From Escherichia phage vB_EcoM-RPN226, in the sequence record OL770073.2: a DNA stretch of 64,000 nucleotides. One strand, 5' to 3'. How positions within the stretch are numbered: the stretch's first letter is position 1; every line of letters begins with the position of its first letter. Shown one piece after another: positions 11,636 through 30,804 of the stretch. Under the pieces are notes generated by a model. It had not been told where the DNA came from. It did not search any database and saw only the letters and a list, made by a program, of their open reading frames with translations. The position numbers and the translations under genes are program-made.

Positions 11636-11944
11636 ATGAAACTGACGACTGAACAAAAAGTAGCAATTCGTGAAATTTTGAAAACTAAATTGTCCATGGG
11701 TATTTCAAATGTAGTTTTTGAAAAGTCTGATGGTACTATTCGTACTATGAAAGGCACTCGTGATGCAGACTTTATGCCAACCATGCAAACTGGTAAATTG
11801 ACTGAATCTGCTCGGAAAGAATCTACTGATATGGTTCCAGTATTTGATGTTGAGCTTGGCATGTGGCGAGGTTTTTCTATTGACAAATTGATTTCCGTTA
11901 ATGGTATGAAAGTTGAGCATTTGCTTCAATTTATTGGTAAATAA
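11636..11944 (+). CDS. hypothetical protein (31.1-like)
   Basis: 102-aa ORF. Confidence 0.45.
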   Translation: MKLTTEQKVAIREILKTKLSMGISNVVFEKSDGTIRTMKGTRDADFMPTMQTGKLTESARKESTDMVPVFDVELGMWRGFSIDKLISVNGMKVEHLLQFIGK

Positions 11945-27392: not shown

Positions 27393-27560
27393 ATGTCAGA
27401 TAAGATTTGTGTTGTCTGTAAAACTCCAATCGATTCTGCATTGGTTGTTGAAACAGACAAAGGTCCTGTACATCCTGGGCCTTGCTATAATTACATTAAA
27501 GAACTACCAGTTTCAGAAAGTTCGGAAGAACAATTAAATGAAACACAACTTTTGCTATAG
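27393..27560 (+). CDS. small Cys-containing protein (uvsY.-2-like)
   Basis: 55-aa ORF MSDKICVVCKTPID with GAGGAGA RBS; not in the supplied ORF track because under 60 aa. Confidence 0.45.
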   Translation: MSDKICVVCKTPIDSALVVETDKGPVHPGPCYNYIKELPVSESSEEQLNETQLLL

Positions 27561-27583
27561 TGTGACCTTTAGTCTATAGTTTT

Positions 27584-27613
27584 GGCCCTTCCTTTTTGGT
27601 TGGGCCTTTTTTT
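27584..27613 (+). terminator. imperfect hairpin (GGCCC ... GGGCC) followed by T7
   Basis: stem-loop plus TTTTTTT between convergent transcription units. Confidence 0.4.
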
Positions 27614-27616
27614 AAT

Positions 27617-27847
27617 TTAAAAGCTTTCTTCTACTTCATCGTCTGAATCTTCTAATTCAGCTCTTTTTCCTGCCAAAGCATCTCTCACAGAGATGTCATC
27701 AGTATCTTTTAATTCAGTTTCTTTAACTCTTTTCTTGTAATAAGCTTCAAGTTCTTCTAGACCTTCTAATGTTTGACAAGAGGCAATTTTACCCATAAAT
27801 TCATCAATAGAAGCTTCATAAAGAAATTGTTTAAATTTTAGTAACAT
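27617..27847 (-). CDS. uvsW.1: UvsW.1 small acidic protein
   Basis: 76 aa from MLLKFKQFLYEASIDEF (internal ATG of the 80-aa track ORF); acidic C-terminus. Confidence 0.75.
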   Translation of the reverse strand: MLLKFKQFLYEASIDEFMGKIASCQTLEGLEELEAYYKKRVKETELKDTDDISVRDALAGKRAELEDSDDEVEESF

Positions 27848-27872
27848 CTTTTTCTCCAAAGGGCCGGAGCCC

Positions 27873-28565
27873 TTATAAATTAACTGTTTTTCTAAGTATT
27901 CTTAGTTTGTACATTGATAATCCAGTAGCTTTAGAAGCATCTTTCATGCATTTATACTTAACACCATTTACTTCTATAGGTTTAGCAGCTGGGTTATTAG
28001 CTCCTGAATTATCTGGCATGTTATCTTTAATTTTCTGAATAGATTTAGCGGAATGTTTCCTTCCGTACATGCCGTTATTTTTACCCGATTGATTGATCGA
28101 ATGTAATCTTTTAGCTTCTTCAGTCCATTTCGTTGGGTTCATTCTTTTAGTTTTACTAATTTTATTTCCCCATGTAATTGGACGACTTTTCATGAGTTTT
28201 GACATATATTGTTTATGTTCTTCCGTATGGTGTTTTCCGTAAAATGGATTACCTTCGCCGGATTGAAGTTCTGCCATTTTACGACGTTCCCATGCGTAAG
28301 ATTTATTGACGTGTCTTTCATGAGTATTTGAATTCATTCCCATACATATAACGGCTTTAATTATACCGTAATGGTTTGGATGAATTTTAGCTAAAAGTTT
28401 ATGGGCTATAAAATGTTCTTCAGCCGTTAGTTCTACTAAATTACACTTATCATTTGTACCACCCATGCATCTAGGAATTATATGATGAGTTTCAGTGTAT
28501 CCATTAAGGCGAGCCCGATTCTGGGCTCTATTAATTAAATTATCATATATTAATTTATAATTCAA
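27873..28565 (-). CDS. HNH homing endonuclease (Mob-like) between uvsW and uvsW.1
   Basis: 230-aa ORF; YTETHHIIP...EEHFIAH HNH motif; NUMOD-like GNPFYGKHH and NGMYGRKHS repeats; C-terminal VNGVKYKCMKDASKATGLS HTH-like tail; apparent TTG start after AAGAGG. Confidence 0.75.
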   Translation of the reverse strand: MNYKLIYDNLINRAQNRARLNGYTETHHIIPRCMGGTNDKCNLVELTAEEHFIAHKLLAKIHPNHYGIIKAVICMGMNSNTHERHVNKSYAWERRKMAELQSGEGNPFYGKHHTEEHKQYMSKLMKSRPITWGNKISKTKRMNPTKWTEEAKRLHSINQSGKNNGMYGRKHSAKSIQKIKDNMPDNSGANNPAAKPIEVNGVKYKCMKDASKATGLSMYKLRILRKTVNL

Positions 28566-30073
28566 AGTTTAACCTCTTTCATCACATAATTGAACTTCTC
28601 ATCAGCATAACGCTGAATACGATCAAGTCCATGTTTTAAAAGATAGTTTAAATGCGAGTATTTTTTAGAAGATGTTTTTGATTTAGAAACTACGCCCGCG
28701 TCATCTATGAGGTCCCAGACCGTTGCTATTGTCTTAGAACCATGCTTACGTAATACGCGACCTATTGTTTGCAATACAATAATTTTAGATTTAACGCCGT
28801 GCGCTAAAACAACATGATGCAGATTTTTAACTGAAATACCAGTAGAAAATACACCATAACTAGCTACTATAATTATTCCTTTACCGTTTTCAGCTAGGGT
28901 TTTCATTACGTTGCGTGTTTCGGTATCAACTTCCCCTGATACGTAATAAACTTTATCGTATTCATTTTTAATTAAATCGAAAATAGCTTTACCGTGCGAT
29001 ACGTGTTTAAACATGACAAAAGCGTTTTCATCTTTTTGTGCAAGTTTAATAGCTAATTTAGCGATCCATTTATTTCTTTTACTGAGCCCAGTAATAATTT
29101 TTATTTCTTCTTGGTAAGTTTTTCCCTTTAATTTAGTAGTGAACTCATCGGGATAGCGAAGAAAAATACTATTAATTTTTAACTCAGTTACTTGTCCATC
29201 TTCCATTAATTTAGAAGTCGTTACTGGCTTAAATATTTCACCAAACATTCCAACATACTGCATGATATTGGCTTTGCCATCGCGTAATGAACCCGATAGA
29301 CCAAATTTGAACATGCAGTTATTTAAACCTGATATGATAGATGAAATACTTTTTCCTGTAGCAAGATGGCATTCATCATTCATCATCATTCCAAACTGTG
29401 AGAACCATTCTTTCGGTTGTTTTACTACAGTTTGCCATGTACCAACAACGACTGGTGCATCATTTTTATATTTATCATCTTTTGATGCTCCACCGCCAAT
29501 TTTCTTTATCATTGTATGACTGAATAAACGATAGTCAACGAAGTCATCAGCCATCTGAGTTGTCAGAGCCGTTGTTGGAACAATGATAAGAATTTTACCT
29601 TCATAATTTTCCAAATAATAACGTGCAAGCAAAGCTTGAATTAAAGATTTACCTGCAGATGTTGGAAGATTAAGAATTCTACGACGATTAACTAATCCTT
29701 CGAACACTGCATCTTTTTGATACCAGTGTGGTTCAATTCTTTTATTTCCTGAATAGATTTCTAATTTAGAAAGCCATTCATCAAAATCTTTTCTTGATAA
29801 TTCTTCTTTTTCGTTAATTTGCGGGTCAATCCAAGCTTTATAGCCAAAGTTATCGCAGAACTTTTTAATTTGCCCGACTAAGCCGAATGGAAGAAGACGA
29901 TTATAATCTAAAAGACGGATTCGTCCATCCCAGTTGCCATATCTGAAGCGAGGATTAAAACGATACCCATCAGCTTCAAAGCTAAAGAAATCACGGAGTT
30001 CATGAAATGTACTTTCTTCACAATCAATTCTCACGTGACTAAAATCATAAAAATGTACTTTAATGTCAGTCAT
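28562..30073 (-). CDS. uvsW: UvsW DNA/RNA helicase
   Basis: 503 aa; Walker A (TSAGKS) and DECH helicase motifs; matches T4 UvsW. Confidence 0.92.
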   Translation of the reverse strand: MTDIKVHFYDFSHVRIDCEESTFHELRDFFSFEADGYRFNPRFRYGNWDGRIRLLDYNRLLPFGLVGQIKKFCDNFGYKAWIDPQINEKEELSRKDFDEWLSKLEIYSGNKRIEPHWYQKDAVFEGLVNRRRILNLPTSAGKSLIQALLARYYLENYEGKILIIVPTTALTTQMADDFVDYRLFSHTMIKKIGGGASKDDKYKNDAPVVVGTWQTVVKQPKEWFSQFGMMMNDECHLATGKSISSIISGLNNCMFKFGLSGSLRDGKANIMQYVGMFGEIFKPVTTSKLMEDGQVTELKINSIFLRYPDEFTTKLKGKTYQEEIKIITGLSKRNKWIAKLAIKLAQKDENAFVMFKHVSHGKAIFDLIKNEYDKVYYVSGEVDTETRNVMKTLAENGKGIIIVASYGVFSTGISVKNLHHVVLAHGVKSKIIVLQTIGRVLRKHGSKTIATVWDLIDDAGVVSKSKTSSKKYSHLNYLLKHGLDRIQRYADEKFNYVMKEVKL

Positions 30074-30102
30074 GTCTAAATACCATGTAATAAATATATC
30101 TA

Positions 30103-30110
30103 TATTTATA
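30103..30110 (-). promoter_or_regulatory. late promoter TATAAATA (minus strand) upstream of uvsW
   Basis: plus strand TATTTATA about 30 nt upstream of the uvsW start. Confidence 0.5.
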
Positions 30111-30123
30111 CTGAGGAAATATT

Positions 30124-30804
30124 ATGATAGATAAAGATTATATTGCAGAGCTGAAGGCTCTTGATGATAATAAAGAAGCTAAGGCTAAATTAGCTGAATA
30201 TGCTGAACAGTTTGGTATAAAGGTCAAAAAGAATAAATCTTTTGATAATATCGTTATTGATATTGAAGAAGCCCTCCAGAAGCTCGCTAGTGAACCTATG
30301 CCAGAGACTGATGGGTTATCTATTAAAGACTTAATTAATGCTGCTGATGCCGCAGACGGATTAAAATATGACGATGAAGAAGTCAATCCAGAGGCAGCAC
30401 TTCTGATTGATTCTCCAGTTAAATCTGACATTAAAATTGAAGTAGTCGAAACGGATAAAATTCCCGAAAATACCGATGTTTTGATTGAAGATACTCCTTT
30501 TGTTGAAGAAAAATTCGAGAAGGCTGTAGCTGAGATTATTGAATCTGAAAAGCCGTCTGTATTTACTCTTCCGGAAAACTTTAGTCCGAATCTTCAGCTG
30601 ATTGGAAAAAATCCAGGATTCTGTACTGTTCCTTGGTGGATTTATCAGTGGATTGCTGAAACTCCGGATTGGAAATCTCACCCAACTAGTTTTGAACATG
30701 CGTCGGCACACCAAACTTTATTTAGCTTAATTTATTACATTAATCGCGACGGATCAGTTCTAATTCGTGAAACACGCAATTCTTCTTTCGTAACATTAAA
30801 ATAA
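30124..30804 (+). CDS. inh: Inh, inhibitor of prohead protease gp21
   Basis: 226-aa acidic protein adjacent to hoc, in the T4 inh (hoc.1) position. Confidence 0.7.
   Translation: MIDKDYIAELKALDDNKEAKAKLAEYAEQFGIKVKKNKSFDNIVIDIEEALQKLASEPMPETDGLSIKDLINAADAADGLKYDDEEVNPEAALLIDSPVKSDIKIEVVETDKIPENTDVLIEDTPFVEEKFEKAVAEIIESEKPSVFTLPENFSPNLQLIGKNPGFCTVPWWIYQWIAETPDWKSHPTSFEHASAHQTLFSLIYYINRDGSVLIRETRNSSFVTLK

Follow-up and report, generated by a model that had tools for sequence, protein, structure and literature searches.

The endonuclease gene at the 3' end of uvsW

We analyzed the 3' end of the helicase gene uvsW in Escherichia phage vB_EcoM-RPN226 (sequence record OL770073.2), using a stretch of 64,000 nucleotides (nt), hereafter the window, to which all coordinates refer. 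Three genes follow one another on the minus strand: uvsW (28562..30073; 503 amino acids, ending in NYVMKEVKL), an open reading frame (ORF) of 230 amino acids, and uvsW.1 (27617..27847; 76 amino acids, ATG at 27847-27845), which is 97-98% identical to that of T2 and T4. The middle ORF (27873..28565) encodes a Mob-like HNH homing endonuclease, as judged from the reading frame and homology, and was recovered where the initial annotation had placed it. Its product matched PHROG 655 ('homing endonuclease', E = 3.9e-60), in which T4 mobE is also annotated, and NUMOD3 (51.8 bits, cut-off 20.4), so that a chance ORF can be discounted.

The endonuclease starts with TTG (28563..28565), which overlaps the uvsW stop codon TGA (28564-28562) by two bases. 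The four bases TTGA (28565-28562) form a classic NTGA stop/start overlap of the kind associated with translational coupling, and the endonuclease frame is -1 relative to that of uvsW. The TTG had been described as lying one nucleotide past the uvsW stop, which was an error. The initial annotation was right that this TTG is the sole start codon that keeps the N-terminal MNYKLIY: because an in-frame TAA (28571-28569) lies two codons 5' of it, no other ATG, GTG or TTG can open the frame without losing this sequence. The next in-frame ATG is codon 34 (28466-28464), and a start there would remove E25, H27, H28 and P31 of the HNH motif. The peptide expected at the N-terminus from the TTG start is MNYKLIYDNLINR. 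The Shine-Dalgarno (SD)-like AAGAGG reported to precede the TTG was found at 28573..28578, 7 nt upstream.

When the predicted protein was compared with a profile of its relatives, the HNH catalytic motif was located at residues 25-55 (28401..28493). Ten residues (E25, H27, H28, P31, G35, G36, N42, E50, H51 and H55) were invariant in 15 relatives, and, among PDB proteins, a profile built from these 15 sequences matched the HNH motifs of McrA (E = 5e-5) and of Cas8f-HNH fusions. The best NUMOD3 repeat covered residues 94-122 (28200..28286), and a second stretch also matched. Further, the C-terminal region (residues 157-216; 27918..28097) resembled the DNA-binding domain of I-TevI (PDB 1i3j, E = 0.006). 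T4 MobE was 42% identical over residues 1-168 (tblastn, E = 2e-25). The N-terminal 75 residues were conserved among relatives, and the C-terminus varied. The product thus combines homology to Mob proteins and an HNH motif with a free-standing gene that is variably present at a fixed site. A group I intron-encoded endonuclease was considered and rejected: the score with TIGR01453 was 30 (cut-off 56), coding sequence directly adjoins the ORF, and an Rfam search returned nothing relevant and no match to an intron RNA. On these sequence comparisons, the ORF is probably a functional homing endonuclease gene of the Mob-type HNH class, free-standing and inserted at the 3' end of uvsW.

The gene was present in 48 of about 498-499 matching Tequatrovirus records (approximately 10%), including T6, Yersinia phage PST, ACG-C40 and G8, and absent from approximately 450. 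The 43-nt junction containing the start codon was identical in all 48 independent carrier records. A sequencing error at the TTG, and with it the alternative that resequencing would reveal an ATG, is therefore excluded. The protein copies of Tequatrovirus were 97-100% identical, that of phage G8 being identical to the 230-amino-acid product. The closest record for the 1.3-kb region was phage FL08 (98.3%); a change private to the window, a synonymous TTC for TTT, lies 27 nt upstream of the TTG.

Architecture of the insertion and its flanks

The comparison of the uvsW-uvsW.1 junction suggested in the initial annotation revealed an insert of 689 nt within the uvsW tail and an NTGA start in each of ten lineages (described below). 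In element-free T2 and resequenced T4, the junction reads GTAATG, AAAACAGTTAATTTATAA and GGGCTTCGGCCC, followed by GGAG and the ATG of uvsW.1. When the window was aligned to these genomes, GTGATG was followed by the 689-nt segment absent from T2 and T4 (27891..28579, minus strand) and then by AAAACAGTTAATTTATAA and GGGCTCCGGCCC; since AAA is present at either edge, the boundaries of the insert can be placed only to within about 3 nt.

The insert opens with AAAGAGGTTAAACTTTGA (28562..28579), a substitute tail that ends uvsW as K-E-V-K-L-stop rather than the native K-T-V-N-L-stop and that holds both the SD-like sequence and the start codon of the endonuclease. At the other end, the endonuclease ORF reads into the native uvsW tail AAAACAGTTAATTTATAA (27873..27890), whose DNA is that found at the end of uvsW in T2 and resequenced T4. 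It uses the stop codon of this tail and ends in LRKTVNL. The native intergenic hairpin GGGCUCCGGCCC (27861..27872), present in T2 and T4 as GGGCUUCGGCCC, comes next, and GGAG and the uvsW.1 ATG come after it. The initial description of a Mob-like HNH gene agrees with the homology, but its placement between uvsW and uvsW.1 does not hold: the element sits within the last five codons of uvsW, flanked by two diverged copies of the uvsW tail.

Related phages contain similar arrangements. The substitute tail is similar to the one that uvsW natively has in Proteus phage PM2. PM2 itself carries a tail duplication, with AAAGAGGTTAAATT[G/A]TGA on both sides of the element (left, AAAGAGGTTAAATTGTGA; right, AAAGAGGTTAAATTATGA), and phage P479 likewise has the tail-duplication design. 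In phage PSD2002 the endonuclease ends in MKQVDL-stop, which is the uvsW tail of the element-free Dhakavirus JS98; at the uvsW end of JS98, TTATGA overlaps the ATG of uvsW.1. From these sequences we infer that, in genera with an ATGA overlap of uvsW and uvsW.1, the endonuclease would take its start from the left junction copy, and uvsW.1 would retain its own in the right copy. The two tail copies of the window, identical by our count at only 12 of 21 positions, were missed by a repeat finder, so the tail duplication rests on the comparison with T2/T4, PM2 and JS98. In the old T4 reference (NC_000866), a 1-nt deletion at the uvsW stop (TTTAATAAGC vs TTTATAAGGGC) fuses uvsW and uvsW.1 (PMC1524935). 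The fused ORF of 587 amino acids is a known error, corrected by resequenced T4 and all relatives.

The site illustrates how an invading gene can reside inside an essential gene without damage to that gene. Endonuclease insertions that leave genes in pieces, such as Aeh1 mobE splitting nrdA, likewise lie inside a conserved host gene whose function is preserved. Unlike in the Aeh1 case, only the last four or five codons of uvsW are displaced, and the element replaces them. UvsW is not split into two functional chains by the element, and the split between uvsW and uvsW.1 is older.

The uvsW sequence next to the insert was diverged as well. A tract at 28580..28741 (minus strand) was 74-77% identical to element-free T2 and T4, whereas the remaining uvsW was mostly 94-99% identical and the downstream flank 97-98%. 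Codons 451-500 of uvsW contained 18 synonymous and 10 non-synonymous codon differences from T2/T4. Such asymmetric divergence is the pattern expected from co-conversion or from an immune allele beside a homing site. The tract probably represents a flank that was co-converted or confers immunity, and it is a candidate homing-site region. No sampled genus was closer to the tract than Tequatrovirus (62-71% vs 74-77%), and a donor was not found among them. In the element-free mosaic Tequatrovirus OES_C-2 (PQ642263.1), the uvsW codons DDAGVVSKSKTSSKKYS were of the element-bearing type, and the last approximately 100 nt and the tail were of the T4 type. Either this phage arose by recombination and lost, or never acquired, the element, or the diverged allele circulates independently.

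Start codons at the uvsW site and expression of the endonuclease

Mob-like genes fill the uvsW site in many T4-like genera, and we examined ten lineages, which fall into two protein clades. In the clade of the window gene (224-236 amino acids), the start codon is TTG in Tequatrovirus and Dhakavirus PSD2002, GTG in Moonvirus NM4.3 and Bragavirus PM2, and ATG in the Klebsiella phage group Roth16 (13 records). In the Bp7-type clade (260-264 amino acids), it is TTG in Dhakavirus Bp7 and Karamvirus EnC07, and ATG in Gaprivervirus P479 together with Yersinia phage P8 (YenP8), in Hadassahvirus AbTZA1 and in Angelvirus AsFcp_2. Thus TTG is used in four lineages, GTG in two and ATG in four. The NTGA overlap with the uvsW TGA and a protein beginning with MNY were found in all ten; the base before TGA was A, G or T, never C.

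Residues 1-33 were conserved in relatives across genera. An IMG/VR protein search yielded mostly distant Mob-like genes at other sites, which served only as an outgroup for start codons; in this set of ten distinct relatives (nine from IMG/VR and T4 mobE), all had ATG at the aligned codon. The concern that homologs might begin further downstream was therefore not borne out, as the nine other lineages and the ten other-site relatives all start at the aligned codon, and the position of the endonuclease start is secure.

Non-ATG starts were more frequent at the uvsW site (6/10) than elsewhere (0/10; p about 0.01 by our tally); the Fisher tests themselves were run on an earlier tally of 5/7 (p = 0.003 and p = 0.01). 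The weak start codon is not forced by uvsW, since all the non-ATG lineages could gain an ATG through a silent substitution in the final codon of uvsW (CTT to CTA, ATT to ATA or TTG to TTA). A good SD sequence and ATG were combined in no lineage examined, and lineages with AAAGAGG use TTG or GTG. Roth16 (ATG) and NM4.3 (GTG) have no SD sequence (GAAGACTGT), yet both keep the NTGA overlap. The excess of non-ATG starts is suggestive of selection for weak starts at the uvsW site.

A candidate signal for transcription was located upstream of uvsW. A perfect T4 late-promoter motif, TATAAATA (30103..30110, minus strand), lies approximately 30 nt upstream of the uvsW ATG, and the endonuclease has no second perfect late motif upstream of it within 27400-30300. 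In a consensus scan, the interval from the uvsW promoter to the endonuclease start contained no further perfect late promoter, and the number of sigma-70-like matches did not exceed that in shuffled sequence. Two late-promoter-like sequences with one mismatch were noted on the minus strand, TATAAATT (28552-28559) right after the TTG, and TATAAATG (27949-27956) approximately 100 nt before the uvsW.1 ATG, which could in principle feed uvsW.1. Neither motif was conserved in relatives from other genera. Unlike the window copy, three distant Mob-like genes from IMG/VR had a perfect TATAAATA at most 30 nt upstream of their ATG, apparently a late promoter of their own.

A GC-rich hairpin, GAGCCCAGAAUCGGGCUC, was found early in the endonuclease gene (28511..28528, minus strand; +38 to +55 from the start). 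No other 40-nt stretch of the gene has a more stable local fold. GC-rich hairpins at the corresponding position ranked among the top 0.4-3% of windows in T4 mobE and in 10 of the 11 uvsW-site genes (all except AbTZA1). These hairpins recur approximately 35-55 nt after the start. Their stems belong to four or more sequence types unrelated to one another, and there is no conservation of the peptide that they encode. Covariation testing was dropped because indels offset the stems between lineages, and the stability ranks of single sequences were used instead. The stem in the window is followed by GCCUUAAU, which contains no U tract, and U tracts are mostly lacking in the relatives too. It shares the position of its stem-loop with the intrinsic terminator inside mobE but, for want of a U tract, is not a canonical terminator. 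It may nevertheless act as the mobE hairpin does; possible actions are attenuation, pausing or a barrier to decay. Three distant IMG/VR relatives had an 11-bp stem at the same place.

We also looked for a hairpin sequestering the ribosome-binding site, as in Aeh1 mobE. The local 66-nt fold was no better than shuffled sequences (z = -0.03). A 151-nt fold that pairs GAGGU with GCCUU beyond the hairpin (z = -2.5) was not adopted; the accessibility of the initiation region was unremarkable and inconsistent across relatives.

Precedents for such an arrangement exist in T4. The mobE gene is promoterless and its AUG overlaps the nrdA stop as UAAUGA (PMC2988022, section 13; PMC2790892), which has been interpreted as coupling in a review of T4 endonucleases (PMC2988022, section 13). 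An intrinsic terminator hairpin inside mobE stops 30-50% of transcripts (Wilson & Edgell 2009, PMC2790892), and mobA has a predicted GUG start (PMC2988022, section 13). The window gene resembles mobE, which lies between nrdA and nrdB, in its N-terminus (MNYxKIY in MobE), its membership in PHROG 655, the overlap of its start with the upstream stop, the presumed lack of its own promoter, the GC hairpin at the same 5' coding place, and a polymorphic flank beside the element. In contrast to mobE, its site and presumed target are uvsW and not nrdB, its start is UUG in a 2-nt overlap (UUGA) rather than AUG in a 1-nt overlap, its hairpin lacks a U tract, its C-terminal DNA-binding region differs, and its ORF terminates within what was the tail of the host gene. 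Like mobA, for which a GUG start and an overlap with the upstream ORF are predicted (PMC2988022, section 13), it is a Mob-family HNH gene with a non-AUG start; mobA, however, has a 23-bp overlap and belongs to a different locus, 60.1/39. The copies in T6, PST, ACG-C40 and G8 lie at the same position and show essentially no difference from that of the window.

With the only perfect late-promoter motif ahead of the gene lying before uvsW, the conserved overlap, and the mobE and mobA precedents, we infer, with good support, that the endonuclease is translated weakly or in coupling from the late uvsW transcript, as first proposed. The gene would lack a promoter of its own and be transcribed by read-through from the uvsW late promoter. 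Ribosomes would start at the UUG either by re-initiating while terminating uvsW at the overlapping UGA or by way of AAGAGG, and in either case, UUG being a poor initiator, little endonuclease is expected. The transcript may be braked further by the GC hairpin approximately 38 nt into the gene, as by the equivalent hairpin of T4 mobE. The protein would then nick or cut element-free uvsW alleles, and repair would copy the element together with the diverged uvsW flank.

A more inclusive reading takes the mobile unit to be larger than the endonuclease ORF, a self-contained cassette that would leave the host genes unharmed and restrain its own expression. Such a cassette replaces the tail of the helicase, reuses the duplicated junction as its start and ends at the original uvsW stop, so that uvsW.1 keeps an upstream terminating ribosome; the 5' hairpin would act as a brake, and AUG would have changed repeatedly to UUG or GUG under selection for a low dose. 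We put this forward tentatively, as somewhat less probable than not in its entirety.

Several observations weigh against weak or coupled expression of an active homing endonuclease. The score of the HNH motif against Pfam HNH (16.2) was below the cut-off of 21.4, and a single-sequence AlphaFold model (pLDDT 42) was too poor for use. Being optimally spaced, AAGAGG might by itself support appreciable initiation. The case for selection of weak starts is no more than suggestive, because the lineages are not phylogenetically independent and four of the ten use ATG. Terminator activity of the hairpin is doubtful because no U tract follows the stem. OES_C-2 has part of the diverged allele without the element, and the tract is therefore not strictly linked to it. 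Further, the endonuclease of phage BF15 (MW822007.1) is frameshifted to 195 amino acids, the sole degenerate copy noticed among Tequatrovirus.

The nearest rival to coupling is that AAGAGG drives initiation at the UUG independently of uvsW termination, the overlap reflecting compact packing. The near-optimal spacing of 7 nt is in its favor, as are the local fold that leaves the ribosome-binding site free and an initiation region no more paired than average. Against this stand the overlap retained in all ten lineages and the published reading of the T4 mobE arrangement as coupling (PMC2988022, section 13). Further, that Roth16 and NM4.3 keep the overlap without an SD sequence points to termination-linked re-initiation, and we regard independent initiation as unlikely. 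The gene might instead be a decaying, essentially silent relic whose ATG was lost to TTG and whose ORF persists for lack of time. The weak start codon and the frameshifted BF15 copy would fit a relic, and the near identity of the Tequatrovirus copies would indicate that decay has had little time. However, the ORF is full length and its catalytic residues are intact in lineages with only 30-69% protein identity, a start codon before TGA was kept in all ten, and the element has spread across many genera and hosts, which together make a relic improbable.

Two further alternatives concern the product itself. Translation could begin at the internal ATG of codon 34, a canonical start from which the coding sequence of phage FL08 is annotated; a few records show no endonuclease feature over the junction. 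This is very improbable, as the shortened product would lack four invariant residues of the HNH motif, the residues it omits are conserved across genera, and relatives all begin at the aligned codon. T6 (BBF63601.1) and PST (AGR46130.1, labelled mobD/MobE) are annotated from the TTG with a 4-nt overlap, and most other records likewise from the TTG. Finally, since the endonuclease lies in the -1 frame and the ORFs abut, a -1 ribosomal frameshift at the end of uvsW could produce a UvsW-endonuclease fusion. The TAA in the -1 frame leaves a single codon in which to shift, no slippery heptamer of the form X XXY YYZ is present at the junction, and the junction differs in every lineage (CTTTGA, ATTTGA, TTGTGA, TTATGA, CTATGA); a programmed fusion is almost certainly not made. 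All the tests that could be computed are in line with weak or coupled translation from the uvsW transcript.

The understanding of homing endonucleases is unchanged by these results, which extend to uvsW ideas proposed for T4 mobE and mobA. Three new findings are the most useful: all lineages examined have the NTGA overlap, with start codons that vary; the element brings a substitute uvsW tail; and a hairpin recurs near the 5' end of the gene. The uvsW site offers a natural series on the low-dose control of selfish nucleases, with a shared overlap, three start codons, presence or absence of a ribosome-binding site and, mostly, a hairpin.

Existing annotation and neighboring features

The gene, a member of the known Mob type, is already annotated in public records, and we did not find a paper on this particular uvsW-site element in the literature. 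For annotation, the TTG start is correct, and the codon-34 start of FL08 and the labels 'group I intron endonuclease' and 'GIY-YIG homing endonuclease' are wrong; these labels are used inconsistently across G8, Nispero, Metamorpho and Roth16.

Pattern scans of IMG/VR for the junction returned only the Tequatrovirus isolates G8 and ZN18, the remaining matches being chance occurrences of an SD sequence plus ATG. A metagenome scan with a degenerate uvsW-tail/NTGA pattern gave zero matches.

Around these three genes lie inh, hoc, uvsY.-2, uvsY.-1, uvsY and gene 25, which identifies the window as Tequatrovirus (T4-like phage) DNA. The gene segE, which in T4 lies upstream of uvsW, is absent from the window, as had been noted, with inh ending 50 nt from the uvsW start. 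The suggestion that the endonuclease gene stands instead of segE was not upheld: phage PST carries both, so the two are not mutually exclusive.

Three minor observations were made in other records. An unrelated ORF of 109 amino acids with an HNH motif (ELHHIIFKS) in IMGVR_UViG_2563366730_000001 (11640-11662) has a TTG overlapping an upstream TGA after AAAGAGGT, a chance match to the pattern. In Bp7 (HQ829472.1), uvsW is annotated upstream of the endonuclease as two coding pieces (30-242 and 553-1533), which may reflect a frameshift or some other break in the gene. The uvsW gene of the Roth phages carries the label 'U3 small nucleolar RNA-associated SSU processome protein 25'.

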